Below are positions 3,401-32,339 of a stretch of 64,000 nucleotides of DNA, in pieces. The stretch comes from Candidatus Gottesmanbacteria bacterium RIFCSPHIGHO2_01_FULL_40_15 (GTDB lineage Bacteria > Patescibacteriota > Microgenomatia > 2-02-FULL-39-11), in assembly GCA_001779115.1 (NCBI GenBank), contig MFJF01000005.1, positions 76,922-140,921 of the forward strand, in the 5' to 3' direction. The notes under the pieces are model-generated. The model had not been told where the DNA came from, searched no databases, and saw only the letters and a list, made by a program, of their open reading frames with translations. Both the position numbers and the translations under genes were made by a program. Every line of letters begins with the position of its first letter. The first letter of the stretch is position 1.

Positions 3401-3859
3401 GGGAGAACGGACTATCTGATTAACAATACAACGTTCAACTCCGTTTATAATAAATGTGCCGTTCTCGGTCATTGAGGGAATATCACCTAAAAAAACATCC
3501 TGATGGATTTCTTTACCGGTCTGTTTATTCAAAAGAACTGTTTCAGCTTTAAGGGGTGAATCGTAAGTAAGACCTTTTTCAAGACATTCGCTTGGAGTAT
3601 AGCGAGGACTTTCAAAATAATGCTTACCAATTGTCAGGCTCCAATTTTTCCCGGTAAAATCTTCAACAGGAGAAATTTCTTTTAACAATTCTTCTATACC
3701 CTGATTTATAAACCAATCATATGAATTTTTTTGTACCTCAGTAAGATCGAGAATAGGAAGTATATCCGCTTTTTTACCCCAATTTTGTCTTTTGGGGTTC
3801 ATTTTTTGGGAATTACTTTTAGTTTTTGGCATTGGGAATAAAGAAGACAAAAACAACAA
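461..3859 (-). CDS. rpoB: DNA-directed RNA polymerase subunit beta
   Basis: The 1132-aa ORF carries conserved beta-subunit blocks (GDKLAGRHGNKGV, NLGQLLE, the rifampicin-cluster region) and sits directly upstream of rpoC. The true start could be the internal ATG at 3802 or 3832, and no clear SD is present at any candidate. Confidence 0.95.
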   Translation of the reverse strand: MLFLSSLFPMPKTKSNSQKMNPKRQNWGKKADILPILDLTEVQKNSYDWFINQGIEELLKEISPVEDFTGKNWSLTIGKHYFESPRYTPSECLEKGLTYDSPLKAETVLLNKQTGKEIHQDVFLGDIPSMTENGTFIINGVERCIVNQIVRSPGVYFTGDSDPTTGKILYVAEVRPLFGSWLDFSISKNDVLLVRIDRRRKYAATTFLRAMGISSDEELFNIFKEVDKDKDYLSNTLLKDPTKSQEEAVIEIYRKMRPGEPTVLDNAQDLFRNLFFNTRRYNLGSVGRYKINKKLKIANIENIPENWILTKEDIIGIIKYLIGLTNNIGTIDDIDHLGNRRIRRVGELVANNAFKIGLMRLERSIKERMSLAQTQMDITPSQIVNARPIIATINDFFRTSQLSTILDQTNPLSEIDNLRRLTVMGVGGISRERASFSIRDINSSQYSRICPVRSPEGPNIGLVTYMALYARVNEYGFLEAPYREVNFDEKTKKPKISDHIVYLTADDEQDFYITHSGVPIDDKGYITAERLPARYRGDFLETDAKNIRYIDVIPRQVVGTAASLIPFIAHDEANRALMGTHMQCQAVPLIKPSSPIVGTGMEEIIPQALKRVVKAPVDGKITYVDAVKLVLKESNGKEHTFQIEKFNRTSQNTCFSQNPLVSLGDSVKKNQSIIDGPACDFGELALGQNLIIAYASYDGMGYEDAIVISDRLVKEDIFTSITIEEYDTEVVDTKLGPEETTRDIPNVGEESLANLDDKGIVIVGAEVGPNDILVGKIAPKGETELTAEERLLRAIFGEKAREVRDTSLRMPHGEKGVVTDVKILDREKGDELHPGTIKKIIVKVAQVRKVVVGDKLAGRHGNKGVISKIVPQSDMPYLEDGTPVDVIISPLSVLSRMNLGQLLEAHLGWAANHANYKVSVPVFETIKEDKIIEEFKKYNLPVDGKTILFDGRTGEPYKETVVVGIAYIMKLIHMVEDKTHARSTGPYSLVTQQPLGGKAQMGGQRLGEMEVWALEAHRAAHTLQEMLTIKSDDVVGRARAFEAIVKGTDIPASTIPESFKVLVKELQALGLNVMPTGTVTFTKKQAPPSDVTEASEIVEAKLLAKAAGEEIVEDKSGKSEEVVKNEQLQQEE

Positions 3860-25936: not shown

Positions 25937-26647
25937 TTACTGGTTGGCCGGTTCGTTTTGACCGTCAGTTTCCACGTAGGACACGCAATCTCCCTGATTA
26001 TTAAAGACACCAAACTCTTCCCAGCCGTCTTTTTTACACTCTTCCTTATCAGCGGGCATGACCGTCTGGGGCGGAAGAGAAACGATTTCCTCAACGATTA
26101 CATTATCCAACGCCGGGCCGTATGCAGAGTCTACATTACTGGTAAAAGTTAAGACAGTAGTTCCAGCAGTTGCGGTGAATTCAAAATTTCTTGTCTCCCA
26201 ACCCATAGTTTCTTTAGTATTCTTGGTATGATTGGTTGTATCAAAACTAAATGGGGAGATTGGGTCACCACCGACATCCGCAGTCAAAGTTTTAATTCCA
26301 GATCCGCCCTCGGGATTACCGGCCATGTCAAATTTCACAATATAATTCTTTCCGGCTTCTGTGGGAAACGGCTGTCTGATTGAGCCTGCTACCAGTCCGC
26401 TTAAATCGATACTCCGGCTGCCTTCTGATGCCGGCCAATAAGTACCGATTATTTCCACGTTTCCAGAAACAACTTCCCAATTAACAATATCCGTATCCTC
26501 TGTATCAACCTGTAAGTACAGTCCCGGTTCGGTTCCGTATTCGAAACTGCCGTTTTGGACAATTGAAGCTGCCAAAGCAACGGTTGTAACACTAACGAGA
26601 ACCATACCGGCGACCGCACTTGTGAGTATCAGTTTTTTAATTTTCAT
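25937..26647 (-). CDS. secreted DUF642-like protein
   Basis: Signal peptide (AVAGMVLVSVTTVALAAS) then NGSFEYGTEPG...WEVVSGNVEII...SIDLSG, which resembles DUF642. A strong AAAGGAG RBS and an ACTTGACAAA -35 box lie upstream. Confidence 0.6.
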   Translation of the reverse strand: MKIKKLILTSAVAGMVLVSVTTVALAASIVQNGSFEYGTEPGLYLQVDTEDTDIVNWEVVSGNVEIIGTYWPASEGSRSIDLSGLVAGSIRQPFPTEAGKNYIVKFDMAGNPEGGSGIKTLTADVGGDPISPFSFDTTNHTKNTKETMGWETRNFEFTATAGTTVLTFTSNVDSAYGPALDNVIVEEIVSLPPQTVMPADKEECKKDGWEEFGVFNNQGDCVSYVETDGQNEPANQ

Positions 26648-26749: not shown

Positions 26750-26791
26750 CATTATAAAACAACCCGCAGGTATTATGCCTGCAGGTTGTTT
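26750..26791 (-). terminator. intrinsic terminator for gene 26829..27146
   Basis: AAACAACC(c/t)GCAGG-tattatg-CCTGCAGGTTGTTT stem, followed by TTTTATAAT on the minus strand. Confidence 0.5.
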
Positions 26792-26828
26792 GAAAAAAAG
26801 TTAAACTAATTTGCTTTATTAAACAAAT

Positions 26829-27397: not shown

Positions 27398-28090
27398 ATG
27401 AAAAAGTTGTTGGTAGTTTTTGTTGTTTTAATATTATTGGCGGGAGCGGGAATTATATATTTAGTACAGCCAAAAAATCTGGGTATAAAATATTCTGCCC
27501 AAGACCATCAGGCTTTTAATAATAAAATCAAAGTTTCACATGAAGAACTTCCGGCCGATTCCCCTTCCGGTAAAACCCTGATTGCCTCAGGCAACCATCC
27601 GGTAGACGAAACATTCTCCAGTGAAGAATTATCAGCCGCAGCTGACAACCGCCATAAAGACTATGTTTATTTTCCCTTTCATAAAGTTCAAATCAGGGTA
27701 AACAGTGACGGATCGGTTGAAGGCAGCGCTTCTGTTTCTTTTCAGGATGCGGTGAATTATCTTCTGGCTCTGGGGGTGAATTCCGCCGATATATCGGAGG
27801 GCACTAAAAAATTTAAGATCCCCAATGCCAGCCTTCCCGTTTATCTGAAAGTATCCGGATCGGTTGAAAATAATACGAGCCGAATCAGTGTCCAACAAGC
27901 CAAAATTGCCAATATAGGAGTTCCCCAGAATTTAATTGATGAGTACGGTCCGGGATTAAATGACTTGGTTAACTCTGTTATTTCAGACCGGCAGCCAAGT
28001 TATAATGTTGAAAAACTGGAAGCAGTCGGAGGTAAAGTCCACTTCAAAGGCACATCACCGGACCGCGAGCAGTCAGTCAGAAGCAAGTAA
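27398..28090 (+). CDS. N-terminally membrane-anchored extracytoplasmic protein (hypothetical)
   Basis: 230 aa with an N-terminal TM helix. The last 45 nt are duplicated at 29311-29355. Confidence 0.55.
   Translation: MKKLLVVFVVLILLAGAGIIYLVQPKNLGIKYSAQDHQAFNNKIKVSHEELPADSPSGKTLIASGNHPVDETFSSEELSAAADNRHKDYVYFPFHKVQIRVNSDGSVEGSASVSFQDAVNYLLALGVNSADISEGTKKFKIPNASLPVYLKVSGSVENNTSRISVQQAKIANIGVPQNLIDEYGPGLNDLVNSVISDRQPSYNVEKLEAVGGKVHFKGTSPDREQSVRSK
28046..28090 (+). repeat. 45-bp direct repeat, copy 1 (3' end of gene 27398..28090)
   Basis: aaaggcacatcaccggaccgcgagcagtcagtcagaagcaagtaa matches 29311-29355 at 42 of 45 positions. Confidence 0.8.
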
Positions 28091-28130
28091 AGGGATTAAA
28101 TATTATACGGAGCATGTTAAAATTAAAACA

Positions 28131-28343
28131 ATGGTAGAAACATTTACTCCATTCAGAGCGGGTCCAACAGGAGAAAAAGAAAATGGCGGGCCGGCTGTGC
28201 AACCCCTGGGAACAACTTTTACTGAGATCGATCAACTTGCGGCAGGATTAACTGATGAACAAGCCGAAGGAATGGATCCAAAAGATGTTGAAGCCCTGGC
28301 GGATTTTGAAAGTGAAACCAGCGATAGATTTGTCGGTTGCTGA
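28131..28343 (+). CDS. small acidic protein (hypothetical)
   Basis: 70 aa, starting MVETFTPFRAGPTGEKENGG. It lies inside the repeat-bracketed segment. The ORF-track extension from 27960 overlaps the upstream gene and is rejected. Confidence 0.35.
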   Translation: MVETFTPFRAGPTGEKENGGPAVQPLGTTFTEIDQLAAGLTDEQAEGMDPKDVEALADFESETSDRFVGC

Positions 28344-28441
28344 TTCCAATAATAAATAAAACACAAACTCTTCTCCGACTCTTCTCTGAATTTTTCTTTT
28401 TTTATTTTATACTATAGGACTATTATGCTATAATTCTCCTC

Positions 28442-29275
28442 ATGAAAATTGAGGCTTTAAAGCCGATGGAAGCTGCTACCTTATTGGAATTGCCGGAAAT
28501 AGAATCCGGTTTTAATAAACTGGTTGATGTCCGTAATCATTATTACAGTAATTTCGGGACTGAAAGTTCCGGAGAAAAAACTCTTGAAAGTATTTATCTT
28601 TGGTGGAAAGATTTTGAAAACACAAATGAAACCATGTCCCGTTTCCGCAGCGCAATTACCCGACCCCATATACCGCCCTTGGAACAGCAGCAAGTCAGGG
28701 AAGAATATTCTTCCAGTCAACAGACTGTAAATCAAATAGTCAGAGGTATAGTTTTATTAACTCTGACTGAAAAACCGACTGATGCGGATTGGGATAAAGC
28801 TTTAGAGATTAATACAATTATAGAAAATGTAAAGAGCTGGGAAAAATACGATAATCAGATTATTGCCTTTTGCGAAGCAGTTTTTGAAGCCGGTGAAGAA
28901 TTATCAGCAGTAGGAATCCGGCTAAGAGTCGCCCAGCACTCATGGGATGAATTGACCGCACTTTTCGGATACGCAAAGGCAATACGCGTAACTACCGTTG
29001 ATGATATAGACAGTGAAAAAAGAGAATTATCGGATGCGTTACGCGGTAACTTATGGTCTGAAGATGAATTGGTGATGAAGTCGAAAGTTTATAAAAATTA
29101 CCAAAAACAACTAAAAAGTTTTCCTGAAGATTTACGGAAAAAATTAAAGTTTCTCTGGAAATGTGCTCAGGGAAAAATTCCAAGAGGAACATCTGCCTTT
29201 GATATACTGCATACTCAGGAATCCATTCTCAAAGACCTCTATAAAGAAGGAGCATTTGACCCTGAAGAAAGTTGA
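28442..29275 (+). CDS. hypothetical protein (277 aa, no recognised domain)
   Basis: Long clean ORF inside the repeat-bracketed segment. I recognise no motif. Confidence 0.5.
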   Translation: MKIEALKPMEAATLLELPEIESGFNKLVDVRNHYYSNFGTESSGEKTLESIYLWWKDFENTNETMSRFRSAITRPHIPPLEQQQVREEYSSSQQTVNQIVRGIVLLTLTEKPTDADWDKALEINTIIENVKSWEKYDNQIIAFCEAVFEAGEELSAVGIRLRVAQHSWDELTALFGYAKAIRVTTVDDIDSEKRELSDALRGNLWSEDELVMKSKVYKNYQKQLKSFPEDLRKKLKFLWKCAQGKIPRGTSAFDILHTQESILKDLYKEGAFDPEES

Positions 29276-29310
29276 TATTACATTCCTGAGGAGAGATGCT
29301 TTTTTATTAT

Positions 29311-29355
29311 AAAGGCACAACACCGGACCGCGGGCAGTCAGTCAGAAGCAAGTGA
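29311..29355 (+). repeat. 45-bp direct repeat, copy 2 (orphan 3'-end fragment)
   Basis: aaaggcacaacaccggaccgcgggcagtcagtcagaagcaagtga encodes KGTTPDRGQSVRSK*. The terminator hairpin follows immediately. Confidence 0.8.
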
Positions 29356-29365
29356 TCATAAAATA

Positions 29366-29398
29366 AACAACCCACCGGTATTTCAGCGATGGGTTGTT
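29366..29398 (-). terminator. intrinsic terminator (for gene 29443..29943; possibly ancestral terminator of 27398..28090)
   Basis: AACAACCCACCG-gtatttca-CGATGGGTTGTT stem with a minus-strand T-tract (GTTTATTTTATG). Confidence 0.5.
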
Positions 29399-29442
29399 AT
29401 AAAAATGAGTTGTCAGTAATCTGCACTCATTTTGAATCTACT

Positions 29443-29943
29443 TTATTCAGGCCTGTTTGATCCAACTGCAACAAGTCCGGAACTATTCCAGGGAGCACTC
29501 GAAAGCGTAGTTAATTTTGCTGAATCAGCAACTCCATCACAAACTACTGTGTTTGGATTATCTAAACGAACATTAACACGCGGCTCAGGACCGGGTTTGG
29601 TCGGATCGATATCAGCAACTGAAAAACCGTTAGCATTAAGATGTCCGGTTCCGCCGGCAATTGCCACAAAACATCCAAGTGAATGAACATTACCATCGTA
29701 GAAAATTACTTCATAAGATACACCAGGAACCAAACCTTGAGCATTTACATTAACAACCCAGTTGTCTTTTCCGCTTCTATAATTTAATACTACTTTCCCT
29801 TTTGCACTATCATATTCATCCGCTTCACTTGAATCTTGAGATAATGAACCTTGCCAATTATCAAATTTACCAGCTGCTAACACACCATTTGCTGTCAGAA
29901 GCCATAATACGGCTACTGAAGTACCGATTAATTTTTTCATCAA
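29443..29943 (-). CDS. secreted protein (hypothetical)
   Basis: Signal peptide (AVLWLLTANGVLAAG), 166 aa, two Cys. A strong RBS (AAGGGGGTGA) lies upstream. Confidence 0.55.
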   Translation of the reverse strand: MMKKLIGTSVAVLWLLTANGVLAAGKFDNWQGSLSQDSSEADEYDSAKGKVVLNYRSGKDNWVVNVNAQGLVPGVSYEVIFYDGNVHSLGCFVAIAGGTGHLNANGFSVADIDPTKPGPEPRVNVRLDNPNTVVCDGVADSAKLTTLSSAPWNSSGLVAVGSNRPE

Positions 29944-30332: not shown

Positions 30333-31358
30333 TTACTTATAATAGGTTGATCTTCCTTTGCCAAAGCGTTTGATTAAACCCATATTCTGAAGTTTTTTAA
30401 AATCAAGAATTCTGGTTGATTTTCCCCGGTCTGTCAGTTTGGCATATTCCCTATCGGTAATAAAACCATTTTTTTCGATATATTCCAACATCTTTTCATG
30501 ATAGGGCATCAGTTTAGTTTCCGGACTAACTGATATTTCCGGCAGCAGCTTTTTGACCCTTAACAGCTCATCAATAATACCGTCAGTAAAATATTCCAGC
30601 CAGGAGGTAAAATCGATCGAATCACGGGTTTCGTAGTAATTTCCGATTACTCCAACACTTTTGAAGTAGTTGGATACATTACGATTATAATAATTTTCAA
30701 AGCTGAAAAGATTAAAGGTATCAAGACCAAGATCTTTTAACAGAACTTTTGTTGCCAGTCTTGAAGTCCTGCCATTACCGTCCATAAAGGGATGAATAAT
30801 GACAAGCTGTTTATGAAATAAACCGGCTAAAATAAGAGGATCGAAATTGCCTTTTTTTATTTTAATAAACTCAATTAATTGACTCATAAGTATCGGGATA
30901 TCTTTTGCGTCCGGAGGCCAATAAATAGTTTGATTTTTCTTAGGATCATTGACAAAGACCGGTTTTAATCTGAATTTTCCTGATTCATGTATTGGCACTA
31001 ATTTTTCGGTTACCTGCTTTTGAATTGTACAAATTGATTCAACAGTCAGTGAAAAATGTCCTCTCAGGCTTAATTTTTTATTCAAATTTACAAGAGCTTT
31101 ATTGTAATTAATGACTTCCTGTTCGCTTGATCCCAGATTTTGCGGTGTTGATTTAAGAATTTGTTTGACATCAGTCAAAGGAAGCGGATTGCCCTCAATT
31201 GATGTTGAGGCAAAAGTGGAAATTTCGCGGGCAGATTTCTCCATTTTATGGAGTACGATTTTGGAAAACTTTTTCCGGTTGAGCTCATAAACCCGCTTAT
31301 TTATAGACTTTATGTTGGAAAGAAGTTTATGGGAAATCGCGTACTTAGGATTGAACAT
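30333..31358 (-). CDS. Fic-family protein (class II, N-terminal inhibitory motif, C-terminal wHTH)
   Basis: Fic active-site motif IIHPFMDGNGRTSRL. The inhibitory motif STSIEGNPL matches (S/T)xxxE(G/N). The C-terminus has a winged-HTH-like segment. Confidence 0.85.
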   Translation of the reverse strand: MFNPKYAISHKLLSNIKSINKRVYELNRKKFSKIVLHKMEKSAREISTFASTSIEGNPLPLTDVKQILKSTPQNLGSSEQEVINYNKALVNLNKKLSLRGHFSLTVESICTIQKQVTEKLVPIHESGKFRLKPVFVNDPKKNQTIYWPPDAKDIPILMSQLIEFIKIKKGNFDPLILAGLFHKQLVIIHPFMDGNGRTSRLATKVLLKDLGLDTFNLFSFENYYNRNVSNYFKSVGVIGNYYETRDSIDFTSWLEYFTDGIIDELLRVKKLLPEISVSPETKLMPYHEKMLEYIEKNGFITDREYAKLTDRGKSTRILDFKKLQNMGLIKRFGKGRSTYYK

Positions 31359-31400: not shown

Positions 31401-32339
31401 TTACCGAAAAACGGGCAAGTGGGAAGGATGATATTTGTCATCAAGGAGTGAAACCGAGAAGACTTGCCCGTGCTTTTTGAGGATTTTTTGCTTTTTCAGG
31501 AGGTCTTTTTCAGAAACGGTGTCTGCTTTGGTGAGAAGGATTATTTCTTCTTTTTTGGCCATGTCGGGGTTAAACTGTGTTAATTCTTTTCTGACAACAC
31601 GGTAATCTTTATCCGGATTGTCGGATTCTGCGGATATGCAGTGGAGTAGCAATTTTACTTTTTCAATGTGTTTTAAAAATTTTATTCCCAACCCCCGACC
31701 AGAGGATGCGCCTTCAATGAGTCCGGGGATATCCGCCAGGATAATGCTTCCCATGACGCCGAGATTGGGTTCAAGAGTGGTAAAAGGATAATCGGCGACT
31801 TTGACATTGGAATTGGTCAGTTCATTGAGGAGGCTGCTTTTGCCGGCATTGGGAAGACCGATTAACCCGAGGTCGGCTATTAATTTCAGGACAATTTTGA
31901 TTCTTTTTTCCTGTCCCGGTTTACCCGGCTGGGCAAATTTAGGAGTGGTGTTTGAGGGTGAGGCCAGGGCATTGGTGCCTTTTCCGCCCCTGCCGCCTTT
32001 GGCAATGAGGATTTTTTGTCCGATATCGTTTAATTCGATGGTCTCACCGGTATCCTGATCAATGAGGATTGACCCAAGCGGCAATACAATTGTCAGATCA
32101 TCGCCTTTTTTGCCGGTTTTATTGTATTTACCTCCCGTCTGGCCGTCTTGTGCTTTCCACAACTTTTTTCCCTGAAACCGGTTAAGAAGGGATAAATCAG
32201 AGCTTGTCTCAAGATAAATATTGCCTCCGTCACCCCCGTTGCCTCCGTCAGGGCCGGATTTAAACCCTGGATAAAATGAGGCTTTCCCGTCTCCGCCACG
32301 GCCGGCATGGAATATAACTTGTACTTCATCGACAAACAT
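31401..32339 (-). CDS. obg: GTPase Obg (short form without C-terminal domain)
   Basis: Gly-rich Obg-fold N-domain (GGDGGNGGDGGNIY) followed by a G domain (GLPNAGKSSLLN). Confidence 0.85.
   Translation of the reverse strand: MFVDEVQVIFHAGRGGDGKASFYPGFKSGPDGGNGGDGGNIYLETSSDLSLLNRFQGKKLWKAQDGQTGGKYNKTGKKGDDLTIVLPLGSILIDQDTGETIELNDIGQKILIAKGGRGGKGTNALASPSNTTPKFAQPGKPGQEKRIKIVLKLIADLGLIGLPNAGKSSLLNELTNSNVKVADYPFTTLEPNLGVMGSIILADIPGLIEGASSGRGLGIKFLKHIEKVKLLLHCISAESDNPDKDYRVVRKELTQFNPDMAKKEEIILLTKADTVSEKDLLKKQKILKKHGQVFSVSLLDDKYHPSHLPVFR

Follow-up and report, generated by a model that had tools for sequence, protein, structure and literature searches.

Direct repeats around a two-ORF segment in a Gottesmanbacteria species: the probable scar of an insertion behind a membrane-protein gene

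How did the last 45 bp of an intact gene come to stand a second time about 1.2 kb downstream, in front of the hairpin of a convergent gene, and what does the DNA between the two copies represent? We addressed this question in a species of Candidatus Gottesmanbacteria, the host being an uncultured groundwater bacterium. Positions are those of the window, by which we mean the whole 64-kb stretch of DNA that was analysed, and the features concerned are as follows.

27398 to 28090, plus strand: A230, intact ORF for a 230-aa membrane-anchored protein of a Microgenomates-conserved family
28046 to 28090, plus strand: repeat copy 1, the true 3' end of A230, with its functional last 14 codons (KGTSPDREQSVRSK) and a TAA stop
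28131 to 28343, plus strand: B70, acidic 70-aa ORF, species-restricted and fast-changing
28406 to 28434, plus strand: promoter-like site for C277 (TTTATA, 17 nt, TG-TATAAT), near-identical to sequence upstream of the C277 homologs in loci L031 and L032
28442 to 29275, plus strand: C277, 277-aa all-alpha cytoplasmic protein of an uncharacterised family, main cargo of the segment
29311 to 29355, plus strand: repeat copy 2, orphan, decaying A230 3' fragment (KGTTPDRGQSVRSK, TGA stop), 42/45 identity to copy 1
29367 to 29398, minus strand: terminator hairpin of D166 (given as 29366-29398 in the earlier note), U-tract UAUUUUAU at 29359-29366 on the minus strand
29402 to 29433, minus strand: first hairpin after the D166 stop
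29443 to 29943, minus strand: D166, convergent 166-aa ORF with a signal-peptide-like hydrophobic N-terminus

The repeat pair and its constancy within the species

Both copies of the repeat lie on the plus strand (28046-28090, AAAGGCACATCACCGGACCGCGAGCAGTCAGTCAGAAGCAAGTAA; 29311-29355, AAAGGCACAACACCGGACCGCGGGCAGTCAGTCAGAAGCAAGTGA) and agree at 42 of 45 positions, the three mismatches being T/A, A/G and A/G. An earlier note on this DNA had claimed that the gene end recurs in this way, and the statistics bear it out: a degenerate 45-mer with up to three mismatches finds only the two copies when both strands of the 64 kb are searched, none of 100 dinucleotide shuffles matches it, and local alignment of the C277 flanks gives a score of 76, whereas 300 shuffles reach 31 at most. 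The repeat has sharp edges on both sides, with no similarity upstream of 28046/29311 or downstream of either stop codon, and the longest uninterrupted identity between the copies is now 20 bp. The right edge coincides exactly with the stop codon and the left edge is abrupt, as would be expected if the homology between the parental molecules had been confined to coding sequence. The same note had proposed a search for further copies; in the window and in same-species loci the 45-mer was found only at the two cognate sites, and it is absent from viral contigs, so that within these sequences it does not behave as a dispersed repeat.

Roughly 40 contigs of this species, drawn from several assembly projects (NCBI MAGs, ENA MEGAHIT assemblies, ANAN16 scaffolds and JGI contigs), share this layout, and no empty site occurs among them. 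In addition, all 12 same-species loci that reach far enough (L021-L030, L034 and L101) show this arrangement, and in each of them the copies differ by the same three mismatches. Because so many contigs from independent projects agree, the repeat cannot be ascribed to assembly: a chimeric join or a collapsed repeat, for which only the general risk of metagenome-assembled genomes speaks, has practically no probability when samples, assemblers and projects concur and the three differences recur in every locus inspected at sequence level. The argument that three mismatches speak against a very recent event or an artefact is likewise upheld, since structure and mismatches are fixed in all assemblies of the species. 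Copy 1 is identical in 9 of 10 aligned strain loci and the orphan copy in all strains, and the loci L100-L105 carry a second allele of the 230-aa protein in the same gene layout.

The two gene ends, the segment between them and the hairpins

A230 has no Pfam family, and its homologs (n=99, 46-72% identity) share a conserved C-terminus, FKGTSPDKEQAVRSL. Copy 1 retains the family-conserved Ser/Ala220 and the invariant Glu224. The orphan shows two derived changes, Ser to Thr and Glu to Gly, so that Thr replaces the Ser or Ala found in 36 homologs, and Gly the invariant Glu224. It ends in TGA, as do all six closest relatives, and copy 1 ends in TAA. Because it has lost conserved residues and kept the stop codon of the closest relatives, the orphan is most likely the displaced and decaying original 3' end of A230. 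Its frame is closed upstream by a TGA at 29287-29289 and opens only as a 19-codon ORF from an ATG at 29296, with GAGGAG just 2 nt before that ATG. The description of the second copy as an orphan 3'-end fragment is supported, the fragment being displaced and non-functional; annotators should enter 29311-29355 as the remnant of a pseudogene.

The segment between the copies now spans 28091-29310 (~1.22 kb) and comprises the B70 region and C277 with its own promoter; its G+C content does not differ from that of the surroundings. It had been described as holding an acidic 70-aa ORF and a 277-aa ORF with no recognisable domain, and indeed neither belongs to a Pfam, PHROG, NCBIfam or PADLOC family. 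That B70 is a real gene is doubtful. Its matches among 5.8 billion proteins come from the same species only, its strain differences are clustered (28197-28225 and 28284-28295) and mostly nonsynonymous, and a +1 frameshift is present in L025 and L027; no template for the strain haplotypes was found elsewhere in the window. C277 has full-length homologs in other genomes, which occupy unrelated contexts in L031, L032, L106 and L108, and the promoter-like site accompanies them into L031 and L032. B70 was never found beside these homologs. In L031, from a related genome, the C277 homolog lies 3.7 kb downstream of A230, and the two genes may thus have been linked for longer than a simple insertion would suggest; the idea that L031 is a circular contig was discarded, as terminal overlap is absent. 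A phage or defence origin of the cargo was also rejected, with no PHROG, PADLOC, phage tblastn or viral-contig match, which includes the comparison of the 277-aa ORF with phage proteins that the first analysis had suggested.

The second of the two hairpins after D166 begins 10 nt past the orphan stop and lies downstream of the convergent gene at 29443-29943. Its fold z-score is -4.5 on the minus strand and -1.4 on the plus strand, and with its T-tract on the minus strand it is the terminator of D166 and bidirectional at best. Similar hairpins are dispersed (at 26757-26793 in the window, five in L007 and three in L031), and the family trails many small secreted-protein genes in these genomes. 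The earlier note rightly placed a hairpin directly after the second repeat copy, but its view of this hairpin as the original terminator of the 230-aa gene needs correcting, as the hairpin is not specific to that gene, given a T-tract on the minus strand and a dispersed family; the hairpin should be assigned to D166 in annotation. D166 itself is present in all strains at 88-99% identity and was not seen next to A230 in other genomes.

A single insertion as the probable origin

Among 85 A230 loci from other organisms, none has B70, C277 or D166 adjoining A230, and none has a second A230 3' end. A direct comparison comes from L013 and L041, in which A230 is 73% identical and which read '...AAAGTCCACTTC-CAAGGCAC...TGA', 21 nt, then AAAAAACAACCCACCGGT...CGATGGGTTG. 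Their left flank is shared with copy 1 only and their right flank with copy 2 only, so that joining the gene body before copy 1 to the hairpin after copy 2 rebuilds the contiguous L013/L041 order. L013, one of the two closest relatives with a readable flank, thus resembles an empty site, its A230 stop being followed directly by a homologous hairpin, although this hairpin may reflect family membership rather than orthology because the hairpin family is dispersed. In L040, AAAAAACAACCCACCGG lies 25 nt past the A230 stop, and half of one homologous hairpin follows that stop. No available genome has an A230 between 73% and 99% identity, and neither a true empty site nor a donor arrangement was seen; a donor-like genome with A230, B70 and C277 and no orphan was not found. 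The comparison with relatives that had been called for therefore agrees with an insertion, B70 and C277 being absent beside the gene in 85/85 other-organism loci and L013 being empty-site-like. What had been proposed was that a two-gene cassette entered after the gene and duplicated its 3' end. The segment does appear to be an addition, in keeping with the other contexts in which C277 homologs lie; a recurring two-gene cassette was rejected, as B70 is species-restricted, hypervariable, frameshifted in some strains and never associated with C277 homologs elsewhere.

We believe that the repeat is probably a recombination scar left by one insertion event in an ancestor of this Gottesmanbacteria species. 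In the sequence of events that we envisage, the ancestral A230 would have stopped only a few bases short of the hairpin that terminates the convergent, likely secreted-protein gene. A segment of ~1.22 kb would then have joined 45 bp ahead of the A230 end, leaving a second copy of those 45 bp to the left of the insert, either brought by the incoming DNA or made during the event, so that A230 was kept intact. The original last 45 bp would have moved 1,265 bp downstream, where they still abut the hairpin; this orphan is decaying and belongs to no translated gene. The repeat, its fixation in the species, the orphan's decay, the lack of the insert in relatives and the empty-site-like order of L013 were all observed, and from them we infer a single event, its direction and the recombination route. 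Transcription of A230 probably reads through into B70. C277 would be expressed from its own conserved promoter, with a transcript that would run up to the shared hairpins and include the orphan in its 3' untranslated region.

Two routes seem likeliest. The first would be one-sided homologous recombination combined with an illegitimate join (homology-facilitated illegitimate recombination, or '3'-end displacement'); this process usually deletes recipient DNA rather than duplicating it, which counts against the route. The second would be a single Campbell-type crossover with a circular molecule bearing the 45-bp homology. Campbell-type integration of circular DNA leaves the insert flanked by directly repeated copies of the homologous segment, and a direct duplication likewise flanks the inserted DNA here. 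In contrast to that model, the homology amounts to only 45 bp, with a longest uninterrupted identity now of 20 bp, and no circular form is known. Homology of such length is near the lower limit for RecA-dependent exchange.

The arrangement has a precedent: PMC5361080 (citing Jackson et al., 2009; de Vries and Wackernagel, 2002; Prudhomme et al., 2002) explains the orphan 3' ends of rhs/type VI secretion effector-immunity loci by homology-facilitated illegitimate recombination. As in those loci, acquired genes separate an intact gene from an orphan 3' fragment downstream of it in the same orientation, no recombinase is implicated, and one side lies in coding homology while the other junction is abrupt. 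However, the displaced ends of rhs/type VI loci differ in sequence and function, representing toxin tips with immunity genes, and form arrays, whereas here we see a near-identical 45-bp copy, apparently from a single event, and no functional diversification. Moreover, the C-terminus of A230 is conserved throughout its family, so A230 is no polymorphic toxin. Two features of a displacement scar are present all the same: the same-orientation orphan 3' fragment lies downstream of an intact gene, and the insert is absent in relatives with contiguous flanks, the nearest comparator being only 73% identical and the hairpin family dispersed.

Nothing points to a mobile element: ORFs of at least 150 aa encode no recombinase, terminal inverted repeats are absent, and no other genome shows such an occupied gene end. 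Pfam searches of all ORFs of at least 150 aa in the 64 kb found no integrase, transposase or reverse transcriptase, and the domains that could be identified in these ORFs all belong to housekeeping or cell-envelope functions. No terminal inverted repeats pair the ends of 28091-29310. A transposon or IS with a target-site duplication (2-15 bp) does not match a 45-bp duplication without a transposase, and an integron gene cassette does not match a locus with no IntI in Pfam and with hairpins that are 31-33-nt terminator-like stems with U-tracts rather than attC-like. An integrative element would show a recombinase (which a CIME does not require) and a recurrent site or recurrent ends, and these were not found.

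Other explanations and the wider neighbourhood

A different history, which we regard as unlikely, is that the orphan is all that is left of a complete tandem copy of A230, most of which was overwritten by later insertion and deletion. Such a history would also leave a 3' fragment beside the original downstream sequence, and it could draw on a 16-nt exact match between A230 (27621-27636) and C277 (28893-28908), one of only six exact direct 16-mers in the window, whose offset of 1272 is close to the 1265 of the repeat. However, it needs at least two events, tandem A230 copies occur in no relative, and the diagonal of the 16-nt match holds no other similarity, the A230 and C277 proteins being dissimilar; protein homology between them was considered and rejected. 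Furthermore, C277 is homologous over its full length to genes elsewhere, and is therefore not derived from A230, and the 16-nt patch already reads LSAA in the L031 homolog, so that part of the match reflects chance amino-acid similarity and codon bias.

Integrative elements, including integrase-less CIMEs, reside between attL/attR direct repeats in the 3' ends of protein or tRNA genes, as ICESt1/ICESt3 do at fda and SCCmec at rlmH. We consider it improbable that the repeats are the attL and attR of such an integrase-less, CIME-like cassette that was mobilised in trans, targeted the 3' end of A230 and carried a replacement gene end. The likeness is evident: direct repeats flank the insert, the left one completes the target gene, the right one is a non-functional duplicate of the gene end, and the stop codon is precisely where the repeat ends. 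In L032, too, a weak direct repeat of 23 nt (20/23) flanks the C277 homolog, but it holds a Shine-Dalgarno sequence and an ATG and may be mere ribosome-binding-site similarity. Unlike in known elements of this kind, no integrase or other recombinase is encoded in ORFs of at least 150 aa in the 64 kb, there are no conserved ends, and the site is not recurrent, an occupied site or duplicated 3' end being present in 0/85 other A230 loci. No repeat flanks the C277 homologs of L031, L106 and L108, and the one in L032 is marginal, so that the cargo occurs elsewhere without such repeats; B70 does not travel with C277; none of the roughly 40 species contigs has an empty site; and the 45-mer is absent from viral contigs. 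On a further reading, which we hold to be very improbable, a minimal recombinase-less cassette, moved in trans, would use the 45-bp repeats as its recombination sites; its target would be the conserved end of a membrane-protein gene specific to Microgenomates, at the 3' side, and the C277 family would be its cargo. If this were true, the C277 family would repeatedly land with long target duplications, in the window and possibly in L032, and the cassette would be the first integrative type described for candidate-phyla-radiation bacteria.

The second copy could also have been kept for a function, as a 19-codon micro-ORF at 29296-29355 (MLFYYKGTTPDRGQSVRSK) or as an RNA element in the C277 3' untranslated region, and we see hardly any likelihood in this. 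An ATG with GAGGAG just upstream opens the frame, both copies keep the stop position, with TAA in copy 1 and TGA in the orphan, and the fragment is identical in all strains. This invariance is uninformative, however, because most of the flanking sequence is also identical between these strains. In addition, GAGGAG lies only 2 nt from the ATG, both amino-acid changes fall at conserved positions of the parent family, the plus-strand fold (z = -1.4) is no better than that of shuffles, and there is neither an Rfam match nor such a fragment in any other genome. Diversity-generating retroelements are common in these bacteria, and the copies sit where a template and variable repeat might, one closing a surface-protein gene at its 3' end and its partner ~1.2 kb downstream, but this reading has next to no chance and was excluded, given that the repeat is only 45 nt long, that the putative template has adenine at only one of the three mismatches, that no reverse transcriptase was found in ORFs of at least 150 aa in the 64 kb, and that the stretch which should vary does not differ between strains and is conserved in the family as a whole.

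On the insertion reading, the scar is a real but ordinary mark of genome rearrangement. It provides a clean, dated footprint of a gene addition to the very small genomes of the candidate phyla radiation that took place without mobile-element machinery; the insertion spared the recipient gene and left the old end behind, and beyond that no functional consequence of the scar is evident. The surroundings of the scar vary strongly between strains. Identity of the nearby DUF642 gene ranges from 62 to 100% between strains, and B70 varies in patches; because of this strong strain-level mosaicism, recombination with diverged DNA is frequent in the neighbourhood, which favours the insertion reading. 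The 4-kb neighbourhood is mosaic between otherwise near-identical strains, which marks it as a local recombination hot-spot.

The repeat pair in this species

The gene and the DNA behind it are laid out as follows.

27398-28090, plus strand: A230, a 230-aa gene
28046-28090: copy 1 of the repeat, the 3' end of A230
28091-29310: insert
28131-28343, plus strand: B70, a 70-aa ORF
28442-29275, plus strand: C277, a 277-aa gene
29311-29355: copy 2 of the repeat, the orphan
29366-29398: strong stem (hairpin)
29443-29943, minus strand: D166, a convergent 166-aa gene

As the earlier note had claimed, the 3' end of A230 recurs behind C277 as a 45-bp direct repeat: the two copies are identical at 42 of 45 positions, they are the only two in the 64-kb window when both strands are scanned, and 100 shuffles of the window gave zero matches. 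Local alignment of the two C277 flanks scored 76 against a shuffle maximum of 31 (n=300). The repeat has sharp boundaries on either side, the upstream contexts being unrelated and the downstream likeness ceasing at the stop codon.

A230 belongs to a well-populated, unnamed family (99 matches, 46-72% identity, in Gottesman-, Roizman-, Beckwith- and Collierbacteria) characterised by a membrane anchor at the N-terminus and by the conserved C-terminal sequence FKGTSPDKEQAVRSL; in an alignment of 36 sequences Glu224 is invariant and position 220 is Ser or Ala without exception. Copy 1 encodes KGTSPDREQSVRSK, which fits this C-terminus, and copy 2 encodes KGTTPDRGQSVRSK. The three differences between the copies are two amino-acid changes and the stop codon, and the location of the former, at position 220 and the invariant Glu, indicates that the orphan is under relaxed constraint. 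The lineage-specific states Arg222, Ser226 and terminal Lys are common to both copies, which argues that they are mutual closest relatives and not imports from a distant donor. The orphan ends in TGA, as do six of the six closest relatives (L031, L064, L041, L040, L035 and L037), and copy 1 in TAA. The orphan's frame is shut by a TGA at 29287-29289 and reopens only as a 19-codon ORF, translation of which is unlikely because its GAGGAG lies just 2 nt from the ATG.

The A230 protein is identical to NCBI entries of RIFCSP groundwater MAGs, and looking up the exact 230-aa protein and a single-residue variant returned ~40 contigs from NCBI MAGs, ENA MEGAHIT assemblies, ANAN16 scaffolds and JGI metagenomes. 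Each of them runs A230, 70-aa ORF, 269/277-aa gene, convergent 165/166-aa gene, with no empty site among them, and both copies with the same three differences are present in 12/12 loci long enough and read at sequence level (L021-L030, L034, L101). This shared layout across several assembly projects, together with the recurring differences, rules out an assembly artefact, as had been anticipated. Across ten aligned loci (L021-L030) copy 2 is invariant, and copy 1 has two additional SNPs in a single strain, L025.

Relatives and the downstream hairpin

Our scans for A230 homologs returned 20 loci in genomes and 67 in metagenomes. In the 85 of these that belong to other organisms there is neither a B70, C277 or D166 homolog beside A230 nor a second copy of A230's own 3' end; a loose ancestral synteny places a YtxH-family gene upstream and Fic/Obg downstream. 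Among relatives whose downstream flank is readable, the two closest both have the hairpin motif of the window shortly past the A230 stop: in L013/L041 (one relative, 73% identity) the stop is followed by 21 nt and then the full hairpin, and in L040 (71%) AAAAAACAACCCACCGG, the motif that follows the orphan in the window, lies 25 nt past the stop. A three-way alignment shows L013 agreeing with the sequence to the left of copy 1 (AAAGTCCACTTC) and with that to the right of copy 2 (AAACAACCCACCGGT...CGATGGGTTG), with no match to the right flank of copy 1 or the left flank of copy 2. This is the classic empty-site pattern, with the caveat of a distant comparator (73% identity) and a dispersed hairpin family; the comparison with relatives speaks for insertion.

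The hairpin had been taken for A230's original terminator, which its sequence contradicts. The U-tract UAUUUUAU (29359-29366) comes after the stem on the minus strand, where the stem is the second of two hairpins past the D166 stop (z = -4.5); on the plus strand, orphan and hairpin together fold no better than shuffles (z = -1.4). Moreover, the motif AACAACCC...GGGTTG stands behind a 105-aa gene in the window and after small genes with a signal-peptide-like N-terminus in the comparison loci L007 and L031. From the minus-strand U-tract and these other occurrences, the hairpin is D166's terminator, bidirectional at best, and not a private terminator of A230.

Copies of the hairpin
Window 26757-26793, minus strand, behind the 105-aa gene
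Window 29366-29398
L007 8389-11048, five copies
L013 2677-2706
L031 1129-1164, 1830-1865 and 2689-2724, three copies

In several Gottesmanbacteria genomes a sequence-conserved hairpin, AAAAACAACCC...GGGTTG(TT), lies directly behind many small genes whose products are probably secreted. Four of these hairpins were read in sequence (two in the window, L013, L031), and each has its T-tract on the same strand as the gene. In L031 the ribosome-binding regions of these genes are likewise conserved (TTTTCACCTCCTTTC). This pattern suggests arrays of duplicated gene cassettes, each with its own terminator.

The inserted DNA and its neighbourhood

A set of 5.8 billion proteins contains only three close relatives of C277, and 1.8 billion cluster representatives include 57 matches at E<1e-3. 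Its homologs in comparison loci L031 and L032, and more distant ones in L106 and L108, lie in contexts different from the window's, none flanked by an A230 fragment and only that in L032 by a repeat, a marginal 23-nt one whose score was reached by 3-4 of 300-500 shuffles. B70 is found in this species only. The idea of a 'cassette' needs correction. In L031 the C277 homolog lies 3.7 kb downstream of an A230 homolog, with four other genes between, and the two genes downstream of it have homologs in the pair that lies upstream of A230 in L013; gene order here is evidently fluid.

Between strains otherwise ~100% identical, B70 differs in two clustered, mostly nonsynonymous patches, 28197-28225 (9-10 changes in 30 nt) and 28284-28295 (5 in 12 nt), and has a +1 frameshift in two strains (L025, L027); no template for the alternative haplotypes occurs in the window. 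Because of this pattern and its restriction to the species, B70 is either a gene of very recent origin that evolves fast or a spacer that encodes no protein. A more diverged variant also exists (P0159).

The promoter TTTATA-17-TG-TATAAT is common to the C277 homologs in L031 and L032. Promoter and leader TTTTATACTATAGGACTATTATGnTATAATTC (window 28403-28441; L031 about 3750-3788; L032 about 2112-2150) are conserved near base for base between genomes, with proteins only 65% identical. The L032 repeat (2028-2050/3428-3450, 20/23) brackets a frameshifted C277 homolog and a 74-aa ORF; its downstream copy covers the start of a small ORF, with Shine-Dalgarno sequence, ATG and first codons, and its upstream copy is a shortened version. 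The divergent pair at L031 4884-5823 (212 aa minus, 85 aa plus) is 71-73% identical to that at L013 1112-1931, just upstream of A230; the same genes remain in the neighbourhood and their order changes. The ends of L031 do not overlap, so this contig is no closed circle.

The DNA of the window is chromosomal and comes from a Candidatus Gottesmanbacteria bacterium (candidate phyla radiation, Microgenomates); the insert has the G+C content of its surroundings. Any implication of mobility needs correction too: every domain identifiable in ORFs of at least 150 aa across the 64 kb serves housekeeping or the cell envelope (RpoB, NusA, IF-2, PNPase, RNase J, ThyA, DHFR, FtsK, Obg, AlaRS, DnaK/DnaJ/GrpE, MurJ, UvrD-type helicases, PilO), with no integrase, transposase or reverse transcriptase among them, and there is no recurrence. 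A protein with a Fic domain and, at its C-terminus, a weak HTH-like match (30333-31358, minus strand) sits between the variable region and Obg, and Fic homologs also occur near A230 homologs in several distant relatives (L009/L054, L043, L061).

Between strains, the DUF642 protein (25937-26647, minus strand) is 62-100% identical with flanking genes 100% identical, the D166 protein is 88-99% identical, and Obg (31401-32339) is 83% identical in one strain only, L026, beside a 100%-identical Fic. The pattern points to sharply bounded recombination mosaics over a ~4-6 kb neighbourhood, and such mosaicism fits frequent recombination with diverged DNA.

Routes to the proposed recombination scar

Any model must cover the 45-bp direct duplication, a right boundary that coincides with the stop codon and an abrupt left one, the lack of recombinase, inverted ends and recurrence, and an orphan with the ancestral stop and downstream context. 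We propose a single recombination event, in which a second gene end would have been supplied or created left of the insert and the original end displaced. This could have occurred through homologous pairing within the coding sequence and an illegitimate junction formed 45 bp short of the resident stop, the homology-facilitated illegitimate recombination that has been put forward to account for orphaned 3' gene ends at rhs and type VI secretion loci (PMC5361080), or through one Campbell-type crossover with a circular molecule that bears the 45-bp homology; both routes fit, and we rank neither above the other. A two-step history via a tandem A230 copy may be an alternative. The core of the insertion reading stands; what it says of the terminator, its 'cassette' and any implied mobility are to be corrected. 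As a fresh instance of a known event type the repeat and orphan are not surprising; they help annotation and illustrate how a streamlined genome can gain genes independently of a recombinase.

A further match of 16 nt, GTGAAGAATTATCAGC, is exact between A230 (27621-27636) and C277 (28893-28908), reaches 21/24 when extended, and lies at an offset of 1272, where the main repeat has 1265. Both genes read it in frame, as EELSA, and their proteins are unrelated outside it. Only six exact direct 16-mers occur in the whole window, four of them AT-rich, and no Markov simulation (n=1,000) reached this length. Part of the match is chance amino-acid similarity plus codon bias, since the L031 homolog of C277 already encodes LSAA at this position; the match could also be a short conversion patch, and the main conclusion of a recombination scar is unaltered by it.
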